From positions 1 to 53,296 of the IMG/VR virus record IMGVR_UViG_3300049484_000358: 53,296 nucleotides of DNA. One strand, written 5' to 3'. A program made the translations under genes and the position numbers. Positions 5,281 to 45,336 of the stretch are shown here, piece after piece. Origin of the DNA: a virus. Its lineage: Duplodnaviria; Caudoviricetes. Positions within the stretch are counted from its first letter, which is position 1; the number at the start of each line of letters is the position of its first letter. The notes under the pieces were generated by a model, which made no database searches, was not told the DNA's origin, and saw only the letters and a list, made by a program, of their open reading frames with translations.

Positions 5281-5784
5281 ATGTTACTCAAACCTGAAAT
5301 TCGAAATATGTTGAAAGAACAAATTACCGTAGAACTAACTAATATGGCGTTCTATAGGCAGTGCGGCCTGGTTTTGGACAATGCGGGCTGGTTTGGATCA
5401 GCCAAATGGTTCTTAAAACAGTCATCGGAAGAGCAAGAACACTCCGATACTATCGCCAAGTACTTCTTGGACCGTTCAAGGGACGCTGACCTTGGGGTGA
5501 CTTTTTATAGCCATGTTATAGTACCTGATCTGCCAGAAACTGTCCTGTTATCCATGTTTCAAGCTGTTTATGTAGCTGAATTGGCTAATACGGAACGCCT
5601 CTTAGGCATTTATGAAGCCGCTATGATGACTATGGACTTCCAAACAACCTCATTCCTACATAGTTTTATTATTGAGCAATCAAATTCTGAAGCGGAAATA
5701 ACAACCCTGCTGGCCAGGTTGGAAACAATGACCGGTGACCGTGCTGCCTTAGAGGCATTTGATCAAAGTCTAGTGATAGACTAA
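5281..5784 (+). CDS. Ferritin-like protein
   Basis: EQI..EL.N..FY, WF.KQS.EE.EH, E, FL..FI.EQ ferroxidase-centre pattern; RBS GGAGG. Confidence 0.88.
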   Translation: MLLKPEIRNMLKEQITVELTNMAFYRQCGLVLDNAGWFGSAKWFLKQSSEEQEHSDTIAKYFLDRSRDADLGVTFYSHVIVPDLPETVLLSMFQAVYVAELANTERLLGIYEAAMMTMDFQTTSFLHSFIIEQSNSEAEITTLLARLETMTGDRAALEAFDQSLVID

Positions 5785-5811: not shown

Positions 5812-6498
5812 ATGAGTAAGTTAGCGCAAGATCTTAAAACGCATATCCTGCAAGGTGATCCATACGAGAAGTTTGACTGGAGAAAATATCCAGATGATAT
5901 ATCTGGAGGTGAAATTTATCCAGACATGAAAGAAATTCTCGACTTGGTGAAACCTAATTTTGTAATTGAAGTTGGAACCTGGAAAGGTGCATCAGCTATA
6001 CATATGGCAGATGTACTTGCAATGCAGGGTAACAAAGATTTTACGATTCTTTGTATTGATACGTGGTTAGGTTCAATTGAACATTATATCATAGATCCAA
6101 GTAATCCCACTTGGGGGTTATCTGAACGAGTGTTCGGTGTTCCAACTACATATTATCAATTTCTTTCAAACGTTTGTCGTCGGGGCCTGCAGGAAAATAT
6201 CGTTCCATTTCCTAACACATCAGCAATCGCATATCAATGGTTTGTAATGCAGGAATCGCTGCAAGCTGATTTCATTTTCATTGATGCCGATCACAGTGAA
6301 GATGAGTGTTATCTCGATATTAAACGATGGTACGAAATGCTAGCTCCTGGTGGTGTTATGGCTGGTGATGATTTTGATCCGGCTTTTCATGGCGTCATTG
6401 CTGCTGTAAATAAATTCAGTCGTGAAATGCATCTTAAGTTCATTCGAACAGAATACCGACATTGGATGATTCAAAAACCTCCAATTAAAAACTCATGA
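5812..6498 (+). CDS. Class I SAM-dependent methyltransferase (Methyltransf_24-like)
   Basis: IEVGTWKGAS, CIDTWLGS, FIFIDADH, LAPGG..AGDD. Confidence 0.88.
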   Translation: MSKLAQDLKTHILQGDPYEKFDWRKYPDDISGGEIYPDMKEILDLVKPNFVIEVGTWKGASAIHMADVLAMQGNKDFTILCIDTWLGSIEHYIIDPSNPTWGLSERVFGVPTTYYQFLSNVCRRGLQENIVPFPNTSAIAYQWFVMQESLQADFIFIDADHSEDECYLDIKRWYEMLAPGGVMAGDDFDPAFHGVIAAVNKFSREMHLKFIRTEYRHWMIQKPPIKNS

Positions 6499-24921: not shown

Positions 24922-26245
24922 AATCGTCGCTCTTTTTGGTTCTGCACCAACAGCACCAGCACCTCCGGAAATCCCCTGGTATCTTGCCGGAGGTGTTCCG
25001 GAAGAGAATTGCTTGGCGGCATTCAATGGCATTGGTGCCAGAGACATCACGGAAGCTCTTACAAATCTGACTGGAAAATCTGGTGCAATTGTTACTGGTG
25101 ATTGGAATAACACGAATTACCTGGGTGCACTTGTTACCAATATTCCATTTACTCAAGAAATGTCTTTGCTTCTACGCTGTCATTGGAATAGAAGTTGGTT
25201 TCCGGTCCTTCTAAGGGGAGACATTCCTGTAGAACCTGATTCTGTATATCTAATGCTGGCGGTGGATTATAAAGCAGGATTTTCTACTATCAGATATGGT
25301 TCTGAATATCAGTATATTCCGGGAACCACCTGGACAAGTGCCAACATATTCACTTTGACTAGTTCTTTATTTAGAGTAGACTCCGTGCTTCAAACAGATA
25401 CGTTAGGTGCTCCTATTGCGTATACAAATATCTATCCAAATTTAGCGATAGGTTATTCTGCCTATGTAGACAACGAACAAGCAACCAGCTACACTATTCT
25501 TCCTTTAGATCAGCTTTCGATAGAAGCATTCGCGGTATACGATATTGATATAGCTCCTTATGCTCTCGATCTGGAAACTGCGATTTCAGAACTAACTGTT
25601 CCTGATCCCACAAGTTTTTGGTTTTATACACCTAGTGCAACTTGCATAGGAGCATATAAAGCTATTGGAGCTGATCCTACATATTCTATATACAACCTAG
25701 TCAATTATTATGAATATACACTAGCTGCCGCTGGAGAAAATGGATTTGACGTAGACCCAATCAACGGCTTTAGGCCTCTAGTGGACGGAATGTTAGCTGT
25801 AACTGGCATGCGATTTACAGATAATATGTCTTTGTTACTCCGAATTGGTGCCTCTGGTGAATGGGGGCAATATCTGTATCTTGCAAATTCTGGGCAGTAT
25901 TCCATCTTAAGTAATTTAAAATTTGATACTACATCAGCGAAGTATGGGAATATGGATGGTGCTATATTCGCTGGACGAATTCAGTCAAACGACATTATAG
26001 TATATACACCATCAGGGTTCATGATAAATGGAGTTTTAAAAGTAGATGGGTACGGGACACTTGTTCCATCTTCTCCCAATCCATTCCTTGCGTTTTTCGG
26101 ATATAGCGCCGTTACCAGTGAGGACATTTCAACGCTCACTCCTAATATGTACATGAACTTCAATATTCTAGCGTTCGCTGTGTATGAAGGTGATATTCTT
26201 TCTGACGGAGTAGCATTGAGTAATGCAATAGGAGCTTTAACATGA
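24908..26245 (+). CDS. Protein with two repeated LamG/ConA-like domains (putative adhesin/RBP)
   Basis: Duplicated C..A(F/Y)..IGA...NL, FT..MSLLLR and I.AFAVY..DI segments. Confidence 0.55.
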   Translation: MNKNKIVALFGSAPTAPAPPEIPWYLAGGVPEENCLAAFNGIGARDITEALTNLTGKSGAIVTGDWNNTNYLGALVTNIPFTQEMSLLLRCHWNRSWFPVLLRGDIPVEPDSVYLMLAVDYKAGFSTIRYGSEYQYIPGTTWTSANIFTLTSSLFRVDSVLQTDTLGAPIAYTNIYPNLAIGYSAYVDNEQATSYTILPLDQLSIEAFAVYDIDIAPYALDLETAISELTVPDPTSFWFYTPSATCIGAYKAIGADPTYSIYNLVNYYEYTLAAAGENGFDVDPINGFRPLVDGMLAVTGMRFTDNMSLLLRIGASGEWGQYLYLANSGQYSILSNLKFDTTSAKYGNMDGAIFAGRIQSNDIIVYTPSGFMINGVLKVDGYGTLVPSSPNPFLAFFGYSAVTSEDISTLTPNMYMNFNILAFAVYEGDILSDGVALSNAIGALT

Positions 26246-26907
26246 TTTATGCAATTTGTTCTACCAATAGAACTGGATCATCGCTACTGTGCGAAATCCT
26301 GATGAATTCTGGCATTGCTGGCTATCCTGCGGATTTCACCAGCAGCCTCCACCTGGATCATTTCCTTCCAGAGTGCAAGCCTGTTAAACCTCTTACAAAA
26401 CAGGTTGTGATCGAATTGATGCAGAAATATTCGACAAATGGAGTGTTTGGCATAAAGGTGCCATTTGTGGCCTATCAAGATGAGATAAAGTCAAACACCC
26501 TGCTGGACATCTTTCCAGAGAAGCCGAAATTCATATACACCCATAGGAAAGATAAGCTGGATCAGGCAATATCTTCCCTGATTGCAGTTCAAAGTGGTAA
26601 ATACTACTCGTTTCAAAGTGCGCCGCTTCCTTCTTTTCAGTCGTATTCAAAAAAGAATATTGACACATTCCTGAACATTATCAATACTCAAGAGGAAGTA
26701 TGGGAGAAATGGTTCAACGCAAATGACATAAAGCCATTGCGAATATCGTATGAGGAACTTGAAGCTGATCCCTCCAAAACAGTGGGCAAAGTGCTTCAAT
26801 ACCTTGATATTGACGTTGCGGATTTTGCCATGCCTTCTACCAAACTTAGGAAGCAAGCGAATGAAGTCAACAACGAGTGGAAGCACAGATATGAGAGTGG
26901 TGAATGA
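26242..26907 (+). CDS. Stf0-family sulfotransferase
   Basis: YAICST.RTGSSLLC.IL..SG.AG.P, TNGVFGIK, R.D.L.QAIS, W..WF....I.PL.I.YEEL, L.KQA. Confidence 0.9.
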   Translation: MIYAICSTNRTGSSLLCEILMNSGIAGYPADFTSSLHLDHFLPECKPVKPLTKQVVIELMQKYSTNGVFGIKVPFVAYQDEIKSNTLLDIFPEKPKFIYTHRKDKLDQAISSLIAVQSGKYYSFQSAPLPSFQSYSKKNIDTFLNIINTQEEVWEKWFNANDIKPLRISYEELEADPSKTVGKVLQYLDIDVADFAMPSTKLRKQANEVNNEWKHRYESGE

Positions 26908-27119: not shown

Positions 27120-27746
27120 CTATGTCGTTGAGAGCAGTTCGTTAACCTGACGTACCCATTCATATGTATTAAATGATACGTCATTTGGATAAGCTGCTGT
27201 GGTTGATGGAGTCATTCGAACTATATGACTAACCATTGCAGCCAGCAGGTTTTCCATGGCCATGGTCTTAGACTGATCTTCATAAATTCGCTGGCGCAAA
27301 TACACTGCTAAGTCGAGAACTTCTTGGTATGCATCCACCAAAGCATTGCGTCCATTAAAACCCTGTGGGGGTGATCCATATTTCTTGGTACCCATTTCAT
27401 CGCGGGCTTTCATGTCATTGATAACCAATTCCCAAATGGGAGTGTTACCATTGTGCACCGGTTTTGGTTCGCTTTTATTTGGATCAAAAAAATTATCACC
27501 TTGTGGATATGTTGGCATGTCAATCTCCATTGTTGTTTGTATCATTTCTGCAGTCACGCGGGCGCATTGTGGGATAAGCTCATCGATGCGGGCAGTCAAC
27601 AGGTCCGCGCGTGTTCGTTCTGCCAATATAGTGTTGAGCAACAATTCGACATCGTTTGGCGAGAGCTTCATGAAGTTCTGGTCAGCTTCACGGGCCTTCT
27701 TCTGGCGGTTCCAAAACTTTTGTTCGGTGTAAAGTAGTTCGCTCAC
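27120..27746 (-). CDS. Protein with all-alpha NTP-pyrophosphatase (MazG-like) C-terminal domain; internal RBS/ATG at 27518
   Basis: R...G.KKYG....NGR.AL.DAYQE.LD.AVYL. Confidence 0.55.
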   Translation of the reverse strand: MSELLYTEQKFWNRQKKAREADQNFMKLSPNDVELLLNTILAERTRADLLTARIDELIPQCARVTAEMIQTTMEIDMPTYPQGDNFFDPNKSEPKPVHNGNTPIWELVINDMKARDEMGTKKYGSPPQGFNGRNALVDAYQEVLDLAVYLRQRIYEDQSKTMAMENLLAAMVSHIVRMTPSTTAAYPNDVSFNTYEWVRQVNELLSTT

Positions 27747-28147
27747 AGATCACCTCCCTCTACTGCCTGGCCGTCCTGGGGCGGTTCGGGTAATGGCCGC
27801 CAGTGGGTAATATCACAACTTACGTCGTCTACCCAATCTAACCATTCTCCATTTTGATAGTATGCTTCACCATCAAACCACGGTCCTAATGCCAAAGTTC
27901 TAATTTCATTTTCAGGCAACCTTTCCCCTACGGGTATCCACCTGTTCGCCTCCCTCAGCGCATCCCTCTCCGCTTTGACGGTGGCGAGTTGTATGGTGAA
28001 CCTGTCGATGGTTGAGTTCAGGCTGGATACAACCTTGATGTATGCGTCTCGCTCATTGGTTATGGTGGCAAGTTCGGCGCGGAGGGCATCATAAGCGGTT
28101 CGACTCATACTCACGAAACTTGCTGTCAATTTGTACTCGTCGCTCAT
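27743..28147 (-). CDS. DUF551-domain protein
   Basis: WIPV.ERLPE ... ITHW.PLPEPP. Confidence 0.8.
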   Translation of the reverse strand: MSDEYKLTASFVSMSRTAYDALRAELATITNERDAYIKVVSSLNSTIDRFTIQLATVKAERDALREANRWIPVGERLPENEIRTLALGPWFDGEAYYQNGEWLDWVDDVSCDITHWRPLPEPPQDGQAVEGGDL

Positions 28148-29876: not shown

Positions 29877-32015
29877 TTATGTTACATACATGTTGGCTTG
29901 TTGATTGAGTTTGAACCCAATGATGTAGGTATGTCCACCAGAACGATTTAGTGGTTGACCAGTAAGCGCTGAACATCTCTGAGTGAATTTGGTACGCGTC
30001 ATTATGTACCGTTCACCTGCATCTCTAGACCAACCAACAAATGCTTGGTAAGCATCAGATGATTTTACTTTGGACGCTGAATGTTCTTCGGTGCATTCTT
30101 CCATAAACATCCGGACTATATCACTATCAGTTCGATAGCCTTGCACCGCAGCAGTAACTTCAGTCGGTTCACCGAGTCCCTGCTTTATCCACGCCTGCGA
30201 ACCACGAACTAACCACGCCAAAATACCCTGCTGTTCGGCTGCCAGCAGTGCATCTACTTCACTGCGTGGTTTTCTCAAGTCTTTTGGAATTGATCGTTCA
30301 AATGGGATCAGTCTAATGCGATCCCAAATCGAGTTGGTCTGCGATCTGATAATCGGTTTCTCATTTGTTCTAACCCATAATTTAAATACGGGTTTATATT
30401 CAAACGGGTTTTTGTACTTAAAACAAGCCTGGACGGTATCACCGCCAGTCAACTGCTTCACCAAAGCTTCGGATAACTTTTGGTGTTCTTCCGCTTCATT
30501 CATCGAAACAAACCTGGCGCCTTGAAGTTTCGCTAAACTGCTGGACACTCGGTTATCCACGGTAGTTGAAGTAATGACTACCATGTCACTCATCTGCGAG
30601 TAACCCGTTCCCAGTATGTCTTGAACTGTTTCAAGAATAGTTGATTTACCGTTGGCTCCAGATTCTCCCCAACAAATGAAAAAACACCGTTCATCCACGG
30701 CGCCTGTTATGGAGTATCCCAAAGACTTTTGCATGAAGTCAATCAGTCCAAGGTGCCCATCAAAAATTAGTTCAAATGTTTTCTCCCAAAATGGACACGT
30801 CGCAGCGGGGTCATAATCTAATGGAACCATTTTCGAAATCATATCTTCTTTACGGTGTTTGTATAACTCACCGGTTTTAAGATCAATGGTTCCATTATTA
30901 CAGTTCAACAGCCACAATGTTCTGAATGCGTCGATGTCTTCGGTTGTTTTACGTATCTGCGGAAATGTTGTTGCCAATGAAATGGCCGCTGAAATTGAAC
31001 CTGCTGACAGGGATTTTATAGTCCACTGAATTGTTGCCGCTAACTCTTTTGCTTCATTTCTATTTGAAGCTTGCATCAATCGCTTAGCGGCATCATCTCT
31101 AAGCGCTTTCATGCAGGACATAAACAACTGCGATACTACGGCATCATCAGGATCGGGTTCCCATACTTTACCATTCCAGTGAAACCACCCCATACCTGTT
31201 ACATAAATGAGATCCGCTCCATAAGTGTCAATCAACATCTCTGCATTGAACGTGTCTGAACGCTCGGAGACATCGATAACTTTCTTAGCTGCTGCCCTGT
31301 ATGCACTATCTATAGTGGCGACTATTTCTGTTTCTGGTATATCACCATGTCCCTGATCATTTATCCATTTGGTAATCGCTGATACTGCAAATTCTTGCGT
31401 TGTACCCTGCTTTGCAAGCGCAAGTGCAGCATGGTATATGCTATTATTGCGATTACCTTTATCCATTTTTGCACCAACACTGCTGTAGTCTGAATCGTCT
31501 TGCGATAAAACCAAACTAAGCAACCATCCAGGTATTGGTAGTATTTCATAATCAAATGGACTATTTATCCATTCGTATTCCGTGCCATTTGGATGTACGC
31601 TGCCTGGTGCAACTACCTGACCATCGTTACCACGGATGTCAATACCTTTACCAACTTTACCGGGACTATTTCCAATCTCTTCTCCTTGTGGATACTGAAA
31701 ATAGTAATGAGTACCACCAGTACCAGTACGAACGGACACGGTAGCAAATTTACCATGTCGTTCAATTAATTTGTTCCATGATATATCGCCACCGTTTTTA
31801 GGGTCTATATCAACTACTATGATACCAGACTCTTTACCGGTGGCTATACCCCAGTTACAATCTTTGTATTGGGCGGCCCATAAGCGTATCGTTGATTCGG
31901 TTACAGTTGCGCGTTCTTGCCATTTACCTATAATAGGAATTTTATTGCGCACCTGCAGTGGATGCATACGAAAGCCCAGCCGTGCCAATGTCAGTACGGC
32001 GTCTAATGAGGTCAT
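29877..32015 (-). CDS. Bifunctional primase-polymerase + PriCT + D5-like SF3 helicase
   Basis: NWGIATG, VVDID, T.TGG.H, DIRG.....VAPGS.H, RNN, G.NGKST, K.LTGGD. Confidence 0.93.
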   Translation of the reverse strand: MTSLDAVLTLARLGFRMHPLQVRNKIPIIGKWQERATVTESTIRLWAAQYKDCNWGIATGKESGIIVVDIDPKNGGDISWNKLIERHGKFATVSVRTGTGGTHYYFQYPQGEEIGNSPGKVGKGIDIRGNDGQVVAPGSVHPNGTEYEWINSPFDYEILPIPGWLLSLVLSQDDSDYSSVGAKMDKGNRNNSIYHAALALAKQGTTQEFAVSAITKWINDQGHGDIPETEIVATIDSAYRAAAKKVIDVSERSDTFNAEMLIDTYGADLIYVTGMGWFHWNGKVWEPDPDDAVVSQLFMSCMKALRDDAAKRLMQASNRNEAKELAATIQWTIKSLSAGSISAAISLATTFPQIRKTTEDIDAFRTLWLLNCNNGTIDLKTGELYKHRKEDMISKMVPLDYDPAATCPFWEKTFELIFDGHLGLIDFMQKSLGYSITGAVDERCFFICWGESGANGKSTILETVQDILGTGYSQMSDMVVITSTTVDNRVSSSLAKLQGARFVSMNEAEEHQKLSEALVKQLTGGDTVQACFKYKNPFEYKPVFKLWVRTNEKPIIRSQTNSIWDRIRLIPFERSIPKDLRKPRSEVDALLAAEQQGILAWLVRGSQAWIKQGLGEPTEVTAAVQGYRTDSDIVRMFMEECTEEHSASKVKSSDAYQAFVGWSRDAGERYIMTRTKFTQRCSALTGQPLNRSGGHTYIIGFKLNQQANMYVT

Positions 32016-32023
32016 TTAAACCT

Positions 32024-32803
32024 CTAGTCGCGAGTGCAAATAAACAGTGCATTGTTAGACTCAGCTGGAAATGGTACAGCAGCGAATACACGAAAAAATG
32101 CATTTGGCATAACCTCTTTGATTTGCTCCGTATACTCGTTCATAAATACTGCTGGCAGGTGATCCATGCGAATGAACGTACCCATTGCATGAACAATACG
32201 AAATCCAGCCTGCTCCAGCAGTTTTACTTTTCCGTTGTACGTCCACTCACGTGGCTTGCCGTCTGCATCCAGATGGTTATCGGCAACAGTGTCTGATCCA
32301 CCGAGGTTCGGTGAACTCAAGAACATATACCCTCCAGGTTTCGTCCACGAGTATAACCTGCGGACTAACTCTGGAGCTAGAGACTTATCGATGTGCTCTA
32401 ACATTTCCGTGCAGACTACAACAGACTTTGGTCTGATTGTAGACGGATCATCCACAACGATGTTCATCTGGATGAGTTCAACATCAGCACCATCAGGCAG
32501 GCGTCCTTCTTCGATCCATGAAGATTTTGCACGCAGGTCAATTCCAGTGTAATCAAACCCATCCATACCAGCGCGATTGCGCCATAAATACGTAAGCAAT
32601 GGAAACCGACCACAGCCAACGTCCAGCAAGTCTGTAACTTGTTTGCGTTTTACGTGTTTCATAACAACGGCGTAACGGAAGACGTGTGCCATCCAGTCGG
32701 CGTGATCCATGAAACCATTATGAACGGCGTCGGTGGCATTTAGTTCGGTTAAATTTGAACCATTGTTTGTATTACCGATTACTCGAAAATTTTTAGTACC
32801 CAT
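32024..32803 (-). CDS. Class I SAM-dependent methyltransferase
   Basis: LLDVGCG, YTGID, EMLEH, KPGG..FLSSPN; RBS GGAG before ATG 32803. Confidence 0.85.
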   Translation of the reverse strand: MGTKNFRVIGNTNNGSNLTELNATDAVHNGFMDHADWMAHVFRYAVVMKHVKRKQVTDLLDVGCGRFPLLTYLWRNRAGMDGFDYTGIDLRAKSSWIEEGRLPDGADVELIQMNIVVDDPSTIRPKSVVVCTEMLEHIDKSLAPELVRRLYSWTKPGGYMFLSSPNLGGSDTVADNHLDADGKPREWTYNGKVKLLEQAGFRIVHAMGTFIRMDHLPAVFMNEYTEQIKEVMPNAFFRVFAAVPFPAESNNALFICTRD

Positions 32804-32822
32804 TGAAAGCTCCTTTGATGAA

Positions 32823-33860
32823 TTACGCTTGTTGTAACGCAGCGAATGCCATGCGCTTCTCATTTGCTCTATGGCCAAGTAAAGCGTCTTTATCTACTTC
32901 ACCGACTCCTTTTCTCCAATCTGCATTTTCAACAAATGCATTATATAATGCCCATGATGTATTTGCCAGATGCGGGGTTTCATCATTGAAAGCCCCAAAC
33001 AATTCACGAACATTCACCTGCATAGTTTCTGATCGCTGTACGTAATAATCATAAGCTGCCGCGGCGGCAACGCCCTGCTGACGTATGTCGGCTAAGTCCG
33101 AATTACCTTCTGGTATTAGATCTACTAAACCCGCTTTAGCTGGAGTCTTTGGTTGCGGATAAACATAATCCAAAATTCTCGTAACCTGTTCGGCGGTGAT
33201 TTTGTACTTAGCCATCATTTCAAACGCGCTGATGGTTGCAACCTGCGACGTTACCATTTTACCGATAATGTTCAGATTGAATTCAAAGTTACGGCCAACG
33301 CCACTGCGGTGGTTCATTGAAATGTTGACAGCTGAGGTTTTAAGCGCGGTCATCAGTGCATTGGTACACCGCAATCGTAGAGTAGTAAAAATGCTTTTGA
33401 GTGATGTACCACCATCCAAAGTATCAACCAATAAATAGTACATTTCAACGGGATCTTTATGAATCTCTATTCTACCGGCGTTGAGTAGAAAGAAAACTGT
33501 TTGACCGCCGTCTATTTCACCGATTACTTCTAATGGCCAGCGTCCAGTGATAGCATCTAGTTTCGCTGCTAACTCCGAACGTTGAATAATCTCGAACTCT
33601 TTTCCACACCTACCAAACGGCGTATAAACACCGCTGGTGTGATCCGGTACCCGCATAAGTTCGTACTTGCCAAGCGGTACAGCGGTGGGTTTGCCTTCGG
33701 CATTTCTTACTGCTGCGTACGTCGGTGCTTTTATAACTTTGAAGTCGGCACCAATCTCACGTAGTGCAAGTGAAGCGGGTATGGCCGTGTCGAACTTTGT
33801 ACCCATACCTTCCCATATAGGACGACGAAAACCATCATTACGAAAATCGATTAGTGACAT
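32823..33860 (-). CDS. DUF932-family protein
   Basis: R.P.W.G.G, DG.TS, T..R..C.N.L, H, WALYNA.VE..DW. Confidence 0.8.
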   Translation of the reverse strand: MSLIDFRNDGFRRPIWEGMGTKFDTAIPASLALREIGADFKVIKAPTYAAVRNAEGKPTAVPLGKYELMRVPDHTSGVYTPFGRCGKEFEIIQRSELAAKLDAITGRWPLEVIGEIDGGQTVFFLLNAGRIEIHKDPVEMYYLLVDTLDGGTSLKSIFTTLRLRCTNALMTALKTSAVNISMNHRSGVGRNFEFNLNIIGKMVTSQVATISAFEMMAKYKITAEQVTRILDYVYPQPKTPAKAGLVDLIPEGNSDLADIRQQGVAAAAAYDYYVQRSETMQVNVRELFGAFNDETPHLANTSWALYNAFVENADWRKGVGEVDKDALLGHRANEKRMAFAALQQA

Positions 33861-33861
33861 G

Positions 33862-34596
33862 TTAGTCTCCTTCGATATTGTGAAGCATAAACATACTTTC
33901 AAGTGCTGTTCGTGTTGGACAACCTTTAACAATCTCGCGCGCCCACTCTTTATATTCAGACCACGAGTGTAATTTGGGCATGAAAAACACTTCTTCGCGC
34001 CAATTTATACCACCATCATGATCTGCGTATATGTGAGCATTCGTCATGTTTACTTTAGCTGTTCCAGGAAGCAACCCCAAGCAGCTGGCCATGGCTTGTA
34101 TAACCATGCCAAACTGAATCATGTCGTAGGGCAGTCCCCAAACAGCATCAGATGACCGCATTGTAATAGTGCAGTCTAATTCATTCGAATCCTGTTTGAT
34201 ATAAAACTGCATCTGTTGAGTACAGGGAATGGTATCTGGCGTATCATCATGATGCGCAATTAAAACAACTGCACGCCTGCTTGCGGGATCATTCTTCAAC
34301 TCGTTGATTGCCTGTTCAAATTGGTTTACAGTTCGCGGTCCATAAAACGACGTTGGACCAAATAAACCAAGATTAACTTTTGGCGCCGCTGCTGATATTG
34401 CTAGTGGTTCAGCGATACCTCCAATAAATTGGAGGCCTTCAATAAAACCGATAGCAGGGTTATCGTATGGCCTGCGCCACGTCGTTCCGGGTTTGAAGTC
34501 GAAAGATGCATTGTAATTGACCCATGTTTGTTTCCCACGCGGACTTAGCCGCGACCCCTTAAGTATCGATCTTCGATATCTTTGATAATAGTTCAT
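33862..34596 (-). CDS. Thymidylate-synthase homolog, Asp-type (probable dCMP hydroxymethylase/methylase)
   Basis: PRG, E, YGPR, L..DP.SRRAV, PC, MRSSD..WGLPYD, HIY. Confidence 0.85.
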   Translation of the reverse strand: MNYYQRYRRSILKGSRLSPRGKQTWVNYNASFDFKPGTTWRRPYDNPAIGFIEGLQFIGGIAEPLAISAAAPKVNLGLFGPTSFYGPRTVNQFEQAINELKNDPASRRAVVLIAHHDDTPDTIPCTQQMQFYIKQDSNELDCTITMRSSDAVWGLPYDMIQFGMVIQAMASCLGLLPGTAKVNMTNAHIYADHDGGINWREEVFFMPKLHSWSEYKEWAREIVKGCPTRTALESMFMLHNIEGD

Positions 34597-35041
34597 TGTT
34601 ACTTCTCCATCCAGTATATTGTTCGATAGGTATGCCGAATCCGTGAAGCACTGTAATAGTCTCTTTAACTTTACTTCCGTATTCTTGCATATAAGTTACG
34701 CGTTTTACGCCGGCTTGAATGAGCCGTAAAGTACAACGCCAGCAGGGTATGTGCGTAGTGAACACCATTAACCCTTGAGTTGAACGGCCGATATATGCAC
34801 ACTGCAGTAGTGCATTTTCTTCCGCGTGGATTGCATTTATACAATGATGATCTGCATCTAAATTGCAGCCAACGGCGTCACAATGAGGAAATCCCCGCGG
34901 AGCACCATTAAAACCTGACGCGATCACACGATCATTGTCATCGTACAGCAGGGCACCAACTGCTGCTCGTGATGAGCAAGTACTGCGTCCCGCCCATGCG
35001 GCAGCAATCACTGCAAATGTACTATATATTAGTGGTCTCAT
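34559..35041 (-). CDS. dCMP deaminase
   Basis: RSTC..VGA, GFNG.P.G..HC, HAEENA, PCWRC. Confidence 0.92.
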   Translation of the reverse strand: MRPLIYSTFAVIAAAWAGRSTCSSRAAVGALLYDDNDRVIASGFNGAPRGFPHCDAVGCNLDADHHCINAIHAEENALLQCAYIGRSTQGLMVFTTHIPCWRCTLRLIQAGVKRVTYMQEYGSKVKETITVLHGFGIPIEQYTGWRSNNELLSKISKIDT

Positions 35042-35936
35042 TCCAAGTCTCCTCCAACCAATAAAGAACTTGACGAAGTTCATGCTGTATAAGTTCTCTG
35101 GACGCGAAAACAGCTTCTTCCATACGTAAACCATTTTTAAATGGAAGAGTAAAAACCTGTTGCATAGAATCAAATGAACTGGACTCCAAAAAGTTTTTGG
35201 TTTCGTTTCCAAAACCAACAATGTATTTACTCGCTTCTAACATGTAGTCGGATACATTGTCCAGCAGTGTCCAGTGTGCTACTAATGCACTGTCACCGAT
35301 TTGACGCGCAAATGCAATACCGCTTTTTGTAGTAAACGGTAATAGATGTCCGGGTACCGCCGGTTTCTCTTCCAAATTATCTCCGATAAAAAGCACTCTA
35401 GAAAACGCTGGAACTCTACCGGGAAATTTTGACAGGATAGTTGCAGCCATCGTTGATACCGTTTTATTCATCCACTCTTCAGTATAATCATTCATAAGAG
35501 TTGTCCAACGAAAGCGATTAGCATACGCAGAATACGCCGTACGTTCGGCGTATACGTCAACAGGCAGATCAGTCTCATCATGCATGCCAATATTTAACCC
35601 TGCTAATGCGGGTAACATTATAATACCCATGCCATTGCCGATCAAAGCACGACGGTGTAACCATTCACCTAACCACGGATCGTTCGATAACCGACGATCA
35701 CGGCCAAGCAGGTTTCCATATACGTGTTCTGATGGCCATGCACGATCCCAAATTGTAATACGTTGTCGCGCCTGCAGGTCTTCTTTCAAAGCCGGTGTAT
35801 ATTCACGATCGTCGGTCTCGAGTCTTCCCCACTTACGCAGTCTAACGTCGTACGTTAATGACTGAAGATACGAAGTTAACTTACCGATGAACGTCGTTTT
35901 GCCGGATTTTTCGGGTCCATCAATTACAATAATCAT
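35022..35936 (-). CDS. dNMP (thymidylate-like) kinase with C-terminal UDG-like domain
   Basis: IDGPEKSGKTT P-loop, DR...SE.VYG; tail VLFIGD...LPF...SG...IVGFG. Confidence 0.75.
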   Translation of the reverse strand: MIIVIDGPEKSGKTTFIGKLTSYLQSLTYDVRLRKWGRLETDDREYTPALKEDLQARQRITIWDRAWPSEHVYGNLLGRDRRLSNDPWLGEWLHRRALIGNGMGIIMLPALAGLNIGMHDETDLPVDVYAERTAYSAYANRFRWTTLMNDYTEEWMNKTVSTMAATILSKFPGRVPAFSRVLFIGDNLEEKPAVPGHLLPFTTKSGIAFARQIGDSALVAHWTLLDNVSDYMLEASKYIVGFGNETKNFLESSSFDSMQQVFTLPFKNGLRMEEAVFASRELIQHELRQVLYWLEETWNETTNI

Positions 35937-35938
35937 TG

Positions 35939-36394
35939 TTACACCTGTTTGTATTCGTCGCCATGTTCGCCGAGGAACCGCTCAATGTTGGTGATGCTTT
36001 TCTTTGCATAGGCTTCGGCCAACTCACCTGGTGTAATCCCTAAACAGAACAGATAATGAATGATAATTCCCTGAAAAGCGAGGATGTCAGCGAACTCATC
36101 GACAACACGATCTTTGTCGAGGTTCTTCATATCCTTCCAGGGCTTCCAATTCAGAGTCTGTAGGAATTCGGATGTCTCAACAATCATTGCCAAGGTATAC
36201 GTTCTTATTGCATCTTTCGTTGGTAACATACCGTCTGCTGGAATTGCTCCAGAAACTGGAGATGACACGACTTTCTGCACTCGTTGCAAAAACGACAATC
36301 CCATAGCAAGATCATCTACAATAAGCTTGTTTTTCAAATTGGCTTTCATTTTAGCCATTGCTTCAATAACCGTTTCACGATGTGATACTGCCAT
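35939..36394 (-). CDS. Dimeric dUTPase/dCTPase (all-alpha)
   Basis: E..E....WKPWK, E.AD...F, Y..K...N..R. Confidence 0.85.
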   Translation of the reverse strand: MAVSHRETVIEAMAKMKANLKNKLIVDDLAMGLSFLQRVQKVVSSPVSGAIPADGMLPTKDAIRTYTLAMIVETSEFLQTLNWKPWKDMKNLDKDRVVDEFADILAFQGIIIHYLFCLGITPGELAEAYAKKSITNIERFLGEHGDEYKQV

Positions 36395-36403
36395 TGTTTT
36401 CCT

Positions 36404-38173
36404 CTACGCTAACCAAAAATCTGGAAGTGAACCATCTTTATTGCGAGCAATTTCTGCTCGTACTGGACATTTACGAACAACCTTACTCATCCCGTCAATA
36501 AGAGCTTTTTGCAAATCGTTGGCGAAATCTTCAGCGATGTCATCAGGTACACAACACACTGCTTCGTCATGCACAACAGCGCCCATATAATCATCAAGAC
36601 CTTTTTTACCAGCTTCGATCAAACCAAGTTTCATTCCAACTGCTGCAGTACCTTGCACTGTTGTATTAAGGATTACAGCAGGTGTAAACTTCCGTCCAAC
36701 CAAAACCCTGCGGGCTTTGTTCGGCAGGGTTATTACCGCCACTTTGCGGTTCCTAGTTATGGCGTATGCTTTTTGTCGCATACCCCATAGACCTTGGAAG
36801 GTGTCGAAAAACGCTTTGAATAACATGGCGGCTTCTTCAAGTGTCATGTCACTGCCGTTGATGCGAGCGTACTCATAGAACCGACGGTAACTACCGCCGA
36901 ACAGCAGGGTGAATACCATGGCTTTAGCCAATTTACGTTGCTTAGGTTTCACGTCGGACTTTTCACATTTGAAAACCTGCGACGCAATGGATGTATGGAC
37001 GTCTTCGTCTTCCAGCAGGGTTATTAGTACATCATCATTAGATACATCCGCTGATATGCGAACTTCTATTTGTGAATAGTCGACTGATACAATTTTATGA
37101 CCAGGAATGTGACCGAATACCCAACGTCCGTCTTTTGGAACCTGCTGCAAGTTTGGATCTGATGATGATACACGAGTAGTGTCAGCACCGATCTGCCAGA
37201 ACCTGGCATGAATACGTCCATCCGCTTCAATGTGTTCCGCTTGCCAAACTTCAGATCCATACATCTCTGTACGTTTGTGTGGAGCACGCCAATCTAAAAT
37301 GGCTTGTAGTAGTCTAGCGTTATCCGATTCAGGATCGAACAGTATCTGGTCCACAAGTATGTCATGTGCTGTGGAGTCCAGCTCAATTCCAATCGAATTT
37401 AACGCTTTGCGTAATTGAATTGGTGAACCGTAGTTGAACGTACCAAGCCGCTCCTTCATAAGAACTTCGGCATCAACTACACGTACTTCCATTTGACGCA
37501 TGTATTCTTGAAGACTTGCATCGTCGATGGGTAAACCATTTAATGACATTTGTGAAAAGACGGGAAGCACTGCCATTTCCATGTCTAAGGCTGGAGTTTG
37601 TCCGCTGTCTTCGGCTTTTTGAATCTGTTCTTCAACCAATCCCGGCAGGACTAACACGTCAATCGCGGCGTACTTAATCTGATCAGGGCGCAACTGAGAG
37701 TTACGCCATCCACCGTGTTCTATGTTTTTGTCTACTTCGTAACCGGTACGACGACGTACCGACGCACGTAGTGATTTTGATACGTCACTACGGCCAGAAG
37801 TGGTAATGAGAGTTTCAGCAATAAGAGAATCATAATAAGAAGCTTTCTTCCACGGTATTCCAGCCAGTGCCAAATAATGAAGATCAAATGCCGCGATGTT
37901 ATGACCAATAAACGTCCTGCTGGGTTTGAATAAATCGGTTAACCATGGTTGCGGATGCCAATCTTCATGCACACGACCAAGGAATAAAGTCTTTGACTCG
38001 GGTTCGTACATCTGCAGCAATGCAATTTCACTGCGAAACGGACTTAACCCAGTTGTTTCCAAATCAAAAAAGATCCTGTCCGCTTTGTGGAATGCATCAA
38101 TAGCCTGTTGAGGAATTTCATCAACAGGCGTAAGCACTACGTTAGCGGCGTCGTAAAGCTTATCTGCATCCAT
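36404..38173 (-). CDS. polA: DNA polymerase family A with 3'-5' exonuclease
   Basis: DLETTGL, GHN..FD, YAA.D; motif A DYSQIE.R, motif B R..AK...F, motif C VHDE. Confidence 0.95.
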   Translation of the reverse strand: MDADKLYDAANVVLTPVDEIPQQAIDAFHKADRIFFDLETTGLSPFRSEIALLQMYEPESKTLFLGRVHEDWHPQPWLTDLFKPSRTFIGHNIAAFDLHYLALAGIPWKKASYYDSLIAETLITTSGRSDVSKSLRASVRRRTGYEVDKNIEHGGWRNSQLRPDQIKYAAIDVLVLPGLVEEQIQKAEDSGQTPALDMEMAVLPVFSQMSLNGLPIDDASLQEYMRQMEVRVVDAEVLMKERLGTFNYGSPIQLRKALNSIGIELDSTAHDILVDQILFDPESDNARLLQAILDWRAPHKRTEMYGSEVWQAEHIEADGRIHARFWQIGADTTRVSSSDPNLQQVPKDGRWVFGHIPGHKIVSVDYSQIEVRISADVSNDDVLITLLEDEDVHTSIASQVFKCEKSDVKPKQRKLAKAMVFTLLFGGSYRRFYEYARINGSDMTLEEAAMLFKAFFDTFQGLWGMRQKAYAITRNRKVAVITLPNKARRVLVGRKFTPAVILNTTVQGTAAVGMKLGLIEAGKKGLDDYMGAVVHDEAVCCVPDDIAEDFANDLQKALIDGMSKVVRKCPVRAEIARNKDGSLPDFWLA

Positions 38174-38394
38174 TAATACACCGTAACCCAATCGGTAACT
38201 GTAGCCAACAGGTGGTCATAATCACTTTTCATAGCAGAGGCACGAAAAGTAGAAATTTCCACTTCAGCGATACTGGCTTTACGCATAGCGGCAATAACTG
38301 CTCCAAGTATGAAAAAAGCATTACTGTCCTTGCCGATCAATTTCACTTTAACATTTGGATATTTGGGTCCATTACTTATGGTTTGTTCTGACAC
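38173..38394 (-). CDS. Small conserved phage protein
   Basis: L.G.D.NAF.ILG...A...SDYD.LL pattern. Confidence 0.65.
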   Translation of the reverse strand: MSEQTISNGPKYPNVKVKLIGKDSNAFFILGAVIAAMRKASIAEVEISTFRASAMKSDYDHLLATVTDWVTVY

Positions 38395-38479: not shown

Positions 38480-39208
38480 TTACATACCCACTGCTGCGCG
38501 AGCGCGAGCGAGCAGGTCTGCATCCGCCTGAGTCGGCTGAACGACGATCTGATAGAATGTGCCGCGCTTGCCGGACTGTTTGCTGCTTCGCAGTTTAACC
38601 ATGAAGTTACCAAGTCCACGCTGCGCTGCCATCGTATTGAGTGTCTTGCCAGCTTGAATACTGGTCCGACGGAATTCAACCAGAGCCATAGTTTCAAACT
38701 CAGAGACGTACGTGATGTACACATACGAAAATACGCACTTAGGAGGAATACGTTCCCCCTTAGCACCATCGCTCCACTGATTCATCGGACACTTGGAGCA
38801 GTCTCCGCCTGGTTCGCCGATACCAGCAGTGGCATCTTCTGATTTGCAGAGTACCATGCCTTCATCATCGCGCAGTGCTCGGTTACGAGCGAACAGCAGT
38901 GGGACAATCGTGAGTTCAGGAACGGACTCGAAGCCGGTCATGAGCCACTCACCAGGTTTGGCGGTACCGTCTTGGACTTCACCAGTCAGGCCTTGTGCCA
39001 GGCGCAAGCGCGGAATGGTCATGTCTTCAGAGGACATGTCCAACACATTGCTGAAGTTGGCCAGTTGAATAACGCCGTGGGAACCACCTTCAATCACGTC
39101 AAGTTCCGCACCGGGAGTAACCATGGCATCAAAGCCAGTCGGTTCCTCTTTGGCCGGTTCAACGATTGTCGGTTTAGTGGGCTCGTTAGTCTGATTAATA
39201 TCTTCCAT
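38480..39208 (-). CDS. Putative ssDNA-binding protein
   Basis: D..IPRL.L.Q..T.EV..G.AKPG motif; lies between helicase and polymerase. Confidence 0.5.
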   Translation of the reverse strand: MEDINQTNEPTKPTIVEPAKEEPTGFDAMVTPGAELDVIEGGSHGVIQLANFSNVLDMSSEDMTIPRLRLAQGLTGEVQDGTAKPGEWLMTGFESVPELTIVPLLFARNRALRDDEGMVLCKSEDATAGIGEPGGDCSKCPMNQWSDGAKGERIPPKCVFSYVYITYVSEFETMALVEFRRTSIQAGKTLNTMAAQRGLGNFMVKLRSSKQSGKRGTFYQIVVQPTQADADLLARARAAVGM

Positions 39209-44923: not shown

Positions 44924-44990
44924 ATTATACTCCCATTTGACCTCCAGTGTAACTAACAAATGTCATGCAAGTAACATGACCATTGTCACG
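44924..44990 (-). promoter_or_regulatory. Early promoter with GTCATG-N7-CATGACA box
   Basis: TTACAC-17-TATAAT; TGACA 31 nt upstream of -10. Confidence 0.8.
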
Positions 44991-45336
44991 CGTTTTCCGC
45001 GGGGATCGGCGACAAAGGTTGCCAATGAGTTATCCACGAATACATATCACCGTGGTAAAACACACCGTCGGTAGTAGACCATTGTGGTATTGACGCAATG
45101 TGATACGCCACGTGACGACTGTTATTAGATCCGTCGAATACCAGTACCCGTTCATAATCCAGCGGCAGGGTTTTACTAACTGGAACCCATTCAACGAATT
45201 CTGCGCGGAGTGCAGTCACACACTTTTCGAGATATGATTCTTCTTGAACAAGGTCAGATCCCCATCGTCGATTTGCTTTAACGGTTTGGGCGGCTCGGAT
45301 TACTTTGTCGATTAGCAGGTCTATACCCGTTTTCAT
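44986..45336 (-). CDS. DUF551-domain protein
   Basis: WVPVS..LP...RVLV ... ITHWQPL. Confidence 0.75.
   Translation of the reverse strand: MKTGIDLLIDKVIRAAQTVKANRRWGSDLVQEESYLEKCVTALRAEFVEWVPVSKTLPLDYERVLVFDGSNNSRHVAYHIASIPQWSTTDGVFYHGDMYSWITHWQPLSPIPAENA

Follow-up and report, generated by a model that had tools for sequence, protein, structure and literature searches.

Does the virus represented by IMG/VR record IMGVR_UViG_3300049484_000358 replace the cytosine of its DNA before replication and, if so, by which base? The window analyzed here is this entire record (53,296 bp; completeness 98% according to CheckV), and the question is raised by a densely packed operon on the minus strand, at 32024-38191, inside a minus-strand replication block. 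In transcription order, the operon encodes a family A DNA polymerase (PolA), a dimeric-dUTPase-like nucleoside triphosphate (NTP) pyrophosphatase, a kinase, a dCMP-deaminase-family protein, a thymidylate synthase (TS) homolog, a DUF932 protein, and a methyltransferase dependent on S-adenosylmethionine (SAM). We conclude that this is probably a pre-replicative cytosine-replacement module. A previous sequence-only reading of the same DNA had given the right gene list and coordinates, since every cluster gene that it named is present on the minus strand, and its core proposal, that an Asp-type TS acting on dCMP replaces cytosine together with the pyrophosphatase, kinase, and deaminase, is well supported. 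The two outcomes that it offered, a genome containing 5-hydroxymethylcytosine (5hmC) or 5-methylcytosine (5mC) on the one hand and a cytosine-first route to thymidylate on the other, are inseparable by sequence, and both correspond to published models. The genes on which the argument turns are as follows.

33862-34596, minus strand: TS homolog of 244 aa, predicted dCMP-type (PF00303, 79.8 bits, cut-off 24.3)
35939-36394, minus strand: all-alpha NTP pyrophosphohydrolase of the dimeric dUTPase type, 151 aa (PF08761, 36.6 bits, cut-off 22.9; phrog_173)
35022-35936, minus strand: fusion protein of 304 aa, a P-loop kinase followed by a domain like the uracil-DNA glycosylase (UDG) superfamily (Foldseek and VIA; PF03167 in relatives)
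34559-35041, minus strand: zinc deaminase of the dCMP deaminase family, 160 aa if started at the ATG at 35041 (PF00383, 61.3 bits, cut-off 25; phrog_174)
36404..38191, minus strand: PolA with 3'-5' exonuclease (PF00476, 174 bits; PF01612, 42.5 bits)
32024-32803, minus strand: class I SAM-dependent methyltransferase, 259 aa (PF13489, 50 bits, cut-off 27)

The active site of the TS homolog carries this conclusion. Aligned with solved structures of TS enzymes and with ThyA of E. coli, whose numbering is given in brackets, the protein has Cys125 (Cys146), Thr126 (His147), Asp150 (Asp169), and Asp158 (Asn177). The translation contains MRSSDAVWGLPYD, and the final Asp of this segment occupies the Asn177 position. 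Searching 5.8 billion proteins returned 97 relatives, 59 of which were aligned, and all 59 share Asp at this position with the window protein, as does T4 gp42; the replacement of Asn177 by Asp, already claimed from the sequence, was thus confirmed by both the structure and the ThyA alignments. Cys125, the RSSD motif (Arg166-Ser167-x-Asp169), and H188/Y190 (His207 and Tyr209), which place the protein in the PF00303 superfamily, are invariant across the 59 relatives. In the literature, N177D is associated with a preference for dCMP and with modified-cytosine contigs (PMC8670742; PMC13326640), and the MetaGPA study describes positions 177 and 147 as the two sites that best discriminate modified-cytosine from canonical contigs (PMC8670742); at the second of these, where ThyA has His, the window has Thr. 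Taken together with these reports, Asp177 and Thr147 make the prediction that the TS homolog modifies C5 of dCMP well supported. The genome holds a single PF00303 match and no match to ThyX (PF02511), which upholds the earlier statement that it encodes no canonical ThyA or ThyX.

We also considered whether the enzyme might be a 5-hydroxy-dCMP synthase of the RB69 gp48 type. The RB69 and DLP3 synthases likewise have Asp at position 177, but their diagnostic mark is D169N (PMC13326640), and the window retains Asp at 169 (Asp150, within RSSD); this type was therefore rejected. One remote match, on a metagenome contig (L110), is a canonical TS that combines Asn177 with the MALAPCH loop of ThyA, showing that the search pattern also picks up ordinary TS genes.

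The module recurs in metagenome loci. When conservation was scored by BLASTP in 13 related viral loci, the kinase and PolA were present in all 13, the NTP pyrophosphatase in 11, and DUF932 in 10. At the nucleotide level, the cluster gave no match to any of 50,697 phage records. The NTP pyrophosphatase is weakly similar to dimeric dUTPases of S. aureus phages and is a candidate dCTPase/dUTPase. The deaminase, whose start was placed by comparison with relatives, contains the zinc motifs HAEENA and PCWRC, and its top solved relative is the dCMP deaminase of S. mutans (2hvv; E 2.2e-26).

These parts suggest the following pathway. The pyrophosphatase would hydrolyze dCTP (and dUTP) to the monophosphate, depleting canonical dCTP and feeding the TS homolog, which in turn would transfer the one-carbon unit of methylene-tetrahydrofolate to C5 of dCMP. 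The thymidylate-kinase-like domain would phosphorylate the modified dCMP, host nucleoside diphosphate kinase would complete the process, and the phage PolA would polymerize a genome in which C is replaced. Since the phage lacks a ThyA or ThyX of its own, the deaminase may provide thymidylate, either from 5-methyl-dC nucleotides, as in the model for Xp12 and the 5mC-selective deaminases (mSCD), or by supplying the host ThyA with dUMP, as in the model for T4 cd. The UDG-like domain and the methyltransferase would be accessories, the former perhaps acting as a U/T-mismatch glycosylase or persisting as a nucleotide-binding remnant and the latter perhaps adding a second methylation to the modified base.

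The main pathway is of a known kind, although the TS clade is divergent and is accompanied by two recurrent accessory parts. Yang et al. 2024 (bioRxiv 10.1101/2024.12.05.627091), who screened IMG/VR for contigs encoding both a deaminase and an Asp177 TS, report that 104 of 149 dCMP-deaminase genes on restriction-resistant metavirome contigs have a TS homolog within 3 kb, compared to 17 of 277 in the comparison set, and list TS, PRA-PH, and PolA with its exonuclease as the top co-located domains. According to the same report, five of the seven TS homologs tested made 5-methyldeoxycytidine (5mdC), TS-linked deaminases favor 5mC/5hmC substrates, and the mSCD trait is polyphyletic and has no sequence signature; drawing on early labelling of Xp12, its authors propose that phages derive dTTP from 5-methyl-dC nucleotides. 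The cytosine-first route to thymidylate is hence this published model, with the logic of Xp12, rather than a new one, and genome-wide cytosine modification is the classical strategy of T4 and Xp12.

Xp12, PaMx74, and the mSCD-B5 contigs resemble the window in having an Asp177 TS beside a dCMP-deaminase-family gene and an all-alpha NTP pyrophosphatase, near PolA. In contrast to theirs, the window TS belongs to a separate clade with identities of about 26% or less, and positions 143/147/165 read Thr/Thr/Met in the window but Asn/Pro/Leu in Xp12 and PaMx74. Both of these phages have an adjacent gene for dihydrofolate reductase (DHFR), whereas none was found in the window; the window pyrophosphatase is of the dUTPase_2 type, whereas the Xp12-type protein combines PRA-PH with HAD; and the window encodes a kinase-UDG fusion where Xp12 has a separate HhH-GPD glycosylase-like gene, gp61, and, in addition, a SAM methyltransferase. 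The Xp12 protein annotated as a 'HAD hydrolase', gp60 (L024:6219-6992), has an N-terminal PRA-PH domain.

With the T4 proteins gp42, gp56, gp1, and cd, the window shares the superfamilies and the logic of an Asp-type TS, an all-alpha dCTPase/dUTPase (a superfamily to which we take gp56 to belong), a dNMP kinase, and a dCMP deaminase, and both gp42 and the window TS have Thr at 147 and Met at 165. It differs in that the window TS lacks the Asp of gp42 at the water-activating position discussed below, in that counterparts of td, frd, and the glucosyltransferases were not found in the window, and in that the kinase has a thymidylate kinase (TMPK) fold with a UDG-like tail and aligns with gp1 (1dek) at a Z of only 10.0.

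The third comparison is Stenotrophomonas phage AXL3, which has a homologous methyltransferase, an Asp177 TS, a deaminase, and a kinase similar in length with a weakly similar N-terminus; its methyltransferase, gp31, heads a module that continues with PRA-PH, kinase, TS, and deaminase. AXL3 DNA is reported to resist 35 of 37 restriction enzymes and to be cut by AATT and TTAA cutters only (PMC7504290). The AXL3-type TS differs from that of the window at the third residue ahead of the catalytic Cys, where AXL3 itself and each of the 18 AXL3-type loci that have the gene show Asp instead of Thr; AXL3 is described as encoding ThyX, which is absent from the window genome; and gene order is fixed in 19 AXL3-type loci, whereas the methyltransferase is mobile or absent in the clade of the window. 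In these AXL3-type viral loci (L028-L046), a protein of roughly 200 aa resembling AXL3 gp32 lies ahead of the methyltransferase in 17 of the 19 and a gp34-like protein is encoded still further upstream in 10 of them, neither having a Pfam match; three of the 19 carry a HAD-like gene in the place of the kinase.

Whether the TS homolog adds a methyl or a hydroxymethyl group can be approached through the residue three positions before the catalytic Cys. Asp or Glu there is described as activating water for hydroxymethylation, with the T4 variant D145N being inactive, and ThyA has Leu at the same position (PMC6400193; PMC13326640). This residue is Asp in T4 gp42, in Goe9 gp29 (a SPO1-type dUMP hydroxymethylase), and in AXL3, and Asn in the proven methylase of Xp12. 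The window TS lacks the signature acid: the position is occupied by Thr122, equivalent to Leu143 of E. coli ThyA, and Asp121 lies one residue further upstream. Thr122 thus counts towards a methyl product. We surveyed the position in 39 distinct TS sequences from 48 loci and found it to be variable within the family of the window TS (T, D, E, N, L, K, Q, A, S, and G). A deaminase gene lies beside 11 of 12 TS genes of the T/S/A type compared to 5 of 15 of the D/E type, as raw counts that ignore shared ancestry; such an association would be expected under the Xp12 model, provided that the T-type enzymes are methylases. On balance, we give 5-methyl-dCMP roughly an even chance of being the product; 5-hydroxymethyl-dCMP is a serious candidate that falls short of this, and any other product appears quite unlikely.

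One lineage of the family (L082, L013, and L014) has Leu, the ThyA residue, at this position (motif LALRPCT), and its neighboring lineages have Asp or Glu, which suggests product switching within a single family. A Ser-x-Tyr motif proposed as a hydroxymethylase signature proved non-discriminating, as the Xp12 methylase carries it too.

Several observations weigh against a methyl product. The window family forms a clade with T4 gp42, the SPO1-type Goe9 gp29, and AXL3-type enzymes that is split from the Xp12 and PaMx74 methylases and E. coli ThyA with an SH-aLRT of 98, in a tree that came from a quick search, contains long branches, and includes one canonical ThyA. The phylogeny called for in the sequence-only reading, in this form, tentatively places the protein with the hydroxymethylases and not with the Xp12-type methylases. 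The top solved match of the family profile is the CMP hydroxymethylase MilA (1.6e-30), followed by a best ThyA match of 1.1e-28. In the pocket wall, Trp80, Trp83, and Leu143 of ThyA are replaced by Ala, Val, and Thr, and an acid, Asp121, adjoins Thr122. Pfam detected no DHFR in the genome, whereas Xp12 and PaMx74 both have one. The deaminase counts, for their part, are uncorrected for kinship, and a paired test had too few independent pairs.

The same evidence lends weight to a T4-like arrangement, in which the TS homolog is a dCMP hydroxymethylase, the genome contains 5hmC, possibly derivatized at its hydroxyl, and an ordinary dCMP deaminase feeds the host ThyA. The grouping with known hydroxymethylases, the MilA match, the missing DHFR, the numerous family members with Asp or Glu three before the Cys, and the Val that the window TS and T4 gp42 share at the Trp83 position all point this way, as do the best, albeit weak, family matches of the adjacent methyltransferase, the O-methyltransferases Hen1 and UbiG. 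Set against this are the Thr that the window TS itself has at the position where D145N inactivates the T4 enzyme (PMC6400193) and the fact that the phage has no enzyme of its own to convert dUMP to dTMP. Furthermore, Pfam and PHROGs scans detected no glycosyltransferase, carbamoyltransferase, or DHFR family in the scanned open reading frames, most of which match nothing; within that scope, the sequence-only reading was right that the cluster contains no DNA glucosyltransferase. We regard a T4-like arrangement as a realistic alternative, at somewhat less than even odds. If the TS homolog made 5-hydroxymethyl-dCMP, the deaminase might also turn part of it into 5-hydroxymethyl-dU nucleotides, so that C and T would each be partly replaced. 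Yang et al. (2024) report that seven metavirome deaminases of the same family gave 5-hydroxymethyldeoxyuridine from 5-hydroxymethyldeoxycytidine nucleotides in vivo, and the missing ThyA and ThyX would fit; however, all seven were linked to predicted-methylase TS homologs (Yang et al. 2024), Pfam and PHROGs recognized no enzyme that would exclude dTTP, and the signature residue for hydroxymethylation is missing, all of which makes such a double substitution highly improbable.

A more general challenge is that the module merely adjusts dNTP pools, leaving packaged DNA canonical and the Asp-type enzyme a poor or inactive TS. Gene identities, active-site residues, and synteny are observed directly; the substrates of all the enzymes and the composition of the DNA are what we infer from them, and the indirect basis for the DNA composition counts against cytosine replacement and in favor of mere pool shaping. 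The degenerate UDG-like domain of the window demonstrates that parts of the module can decay, and 9 of the 13 viral loci related to the window lack the deaminase, which hence is non-essential to the module, another point that weighs against the pathway as drawn. On the other side, the enzyme retains every catalytic TS residue apart from the specificity positions, without variation among the 59 relatives, a strong enrichment of Asp177-type TS genes is reported for modified contigs (Yang et al. 2024; PMC8670742), and the related phage AXL3, which carries an Asp-type TS module, has DNA with the broad restriction resistance noted above (PMC7504290). We consider it very unlikely that pool shaping is the whole function, and cytosine replacement remains the preferred interpretation.

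The sequence-only reading had taken the kinase to be a dNMP kinase, and a P-loop kinase of TMPK fold is indeed present, but it is not a plain dNMP kinase: residues 1-175 form the thymidylate-kinase-like domain, with the P-loop GPEKSGKT, and residues ~180-304 a putative UDG-superfamily-like domain. The kinase model (pLDDT 78) matched TMP kinases with a Foldseek E of 3.6e-7 and, over residues 1-175, VIA alignments of about 160 residues had a Z of 15-16 and a root-mean-square deviation (rmsd) of about 3 (5x7j: Z 15.3, rmsd 3.1, 160 residues aligned); the Pfam kinase score of 12.4 bits is under the cut-off of 27. Of 12 close relatives, 7 match PF03167 over the C-terminal 125 residues, at a best E of 6.5e-6; the window copy does not. 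Among 120 relatives, 76 have Glu and 16 have Asp at the acidic position of UDG motif A (G-E/D-x-P-G ... P-F), and 94 have the His of motif B (H-P-S/A); most copies of the fusion therefore look like competent glycosylases. In the window the motifs are degenerate, with Asp in motif A and Phe-Lys replacing His-Pro in motif B. At least 187 proteins of 273-337 aa have the same fusion architecture, every named one being labelled "hypothetical", and our searches found no relevant literature on kinase-UDG fusions in phages. A reading as a 5-hydroxymethyluracil-type DNA kinase for hypermodification was set aside, since the fold is that of a mononucleotide TMP kinase and no corresponding Pfam family was matched.

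Glycosylases seem to recur alongside such modules. Xp12 gp61 (L024:5744-6226), annotated as hypothetical, has a match (E 5.1e-7) to the HhH-GPD family of base-excision glycosylases and lies immediately upstream of the genes for NTP pyrophosphatase, TS, deaminase, and DHFR, so that a separate glycosylase gene in Xp12 occupies the equivalent place. The fused UDG-like domain may excise U or T opposite G, as a genome of 5-substituted cytosine combined with its own deaminase would create such mismatches.

The methyltransferase has the motif I sequence LDVGCG and a Rossmann methyltransferase fold (pLDDT 86), with generic class I fold neighbors (ECA1738, FPP methyltransferases, Hen1, and CmoM). In the protein atlas it falls in unnamed viral methyltransferase clusters, and its family has at least 602 members, whose source names are only automatic, UbiE-like labels. 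DNA methyltransferases of the C5 type have a conserved catalytic Cys and those of the amino type a (D/N/S)PP(Y/F/W) motif; in an alignment of 18 members, the sole near-invariant Cys lies in motif I and there is no DPPY-like motif. The window protein is 25% identical to AXL3 gp31 (E 7e-14). Scanning IMG/VR with the family alignment yielded 42 loci, 22 of them full-length, several being mutual duplicates. An Asp177 TS lies within about 3 kb in 21 of the 22 full-length viral loci, and the remaining locus stops at a contig edge; the 20 remote partial matches have no Asp177 TS neighbor. Within the clade of the window, the gene shifts position or is missing and behaves as an accessory, being found in 3 of 13 viral loci with at least five state changes on a tree of 21 rows. 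This synteny agrees with the earlier proposal that the methyltransferase belongs to the pathway; the further alteration of the base that had been suggested is backed by synteny and not by chemistry. A non-acidic signature residue appeared to be linked to methyltransferase presence (0/6 vs 10/15; raw Fisher p 0.012), a result not relied upon given the at least five state changes and too few independent pairs.

If the pathway actually uses the methyltransferase and, in most relatives, the UDG-like domain fused to the kinase as an active glycosylase, the DNA would contain a doubly modified, undescribed cytosine, such as 5-methoxymethylcytosine or an N4-methylated 5-substituted cytosine, and the glycosylase domain would police U or T that deamination leaves opposite G. 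We think this unlikely; our literature search found nothing on methoxymethyl- or methoxy-cytosine in phage DNA.

Full cytosine replacement is a major phage defense against restriction enzymes and some CRISPR systems, and the enzymes involved have become sequencing tools, as with 5mC-selective deaminases. The present locus adds a distinct TS clade that varies at the very residue thought to set methyl versus hydroxymethyl product, so that the published signature rule becomes testable by a single-residue swap. Two large unnamed families, the TMP-kinase/UDG fusion and the methyltransferase tied to D177 TS genes, appear to be new, and each may conceal an undescribed base modification or a repair activity restricted to modified DNA. 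Both accessory parts, like the variable signature residue, merit work at the bench.

Further genes of the replication block flank or interrupt the module.

32823-33860, minus strand: DUF932 / TIGR03299 phage-plasmid protein (PF06067, 69.5 bits)
38480..39208, minus strand: Pam3_Gp34-like protein (PF23977, 35.6 bits)
29877..32015, minus strand: primase-polymerase / D5-type helicase, at the downstream end of the replication block (PF09250, 133 bits; PF08706, 99.7 bits)

The TS stop and the ATG of DUF932 are separated by 1 nt, with GGAG immediately ahead of that ATG, and the methyltransferase ATG is preceded by AAGGAG, a ribosome site of the GGAG type. DUF932 and the Pam3_Gp34-like protein co-travel with the module, the gene for the latter being placed between kinase and TS in most relatives. 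PolA probably starts at the ATG at 38173, its reading frame opening with TTG at 38191. The methyltransferase is followed by the primase-polymerase/D5 helicase and a PD-(D/E)XK nuclease, and the plus strand holds a structural block with small and large terminase, portal, capsid, and tape measure genes.

The gene at 27120-27746, which had been called MazG-like, found no support for that name in Pfam, NCBIfam, PDB, or the protein atlas and matched only PHROGs that lack a functional annotation. It neighbors one of two genes for DUF551-domain proteins (27743-28147 and 44986-45336, minus strand). Between the portal and capsid genes, an unusual location for either, lie a ferritin/Dps-like gene (5281-5784, plus strand; PF00210, E 6.3e-19) and one for a Methyltransf_24 / CmcI-TylF-like O-methyltransferase (5812-6498, plus strand; E 4.5e-16). 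At the end of the tail and structural block is a gene for a Stf0-type sulfotransferase (26242-26907, plus strand; PF09037, E 7.4e-35).

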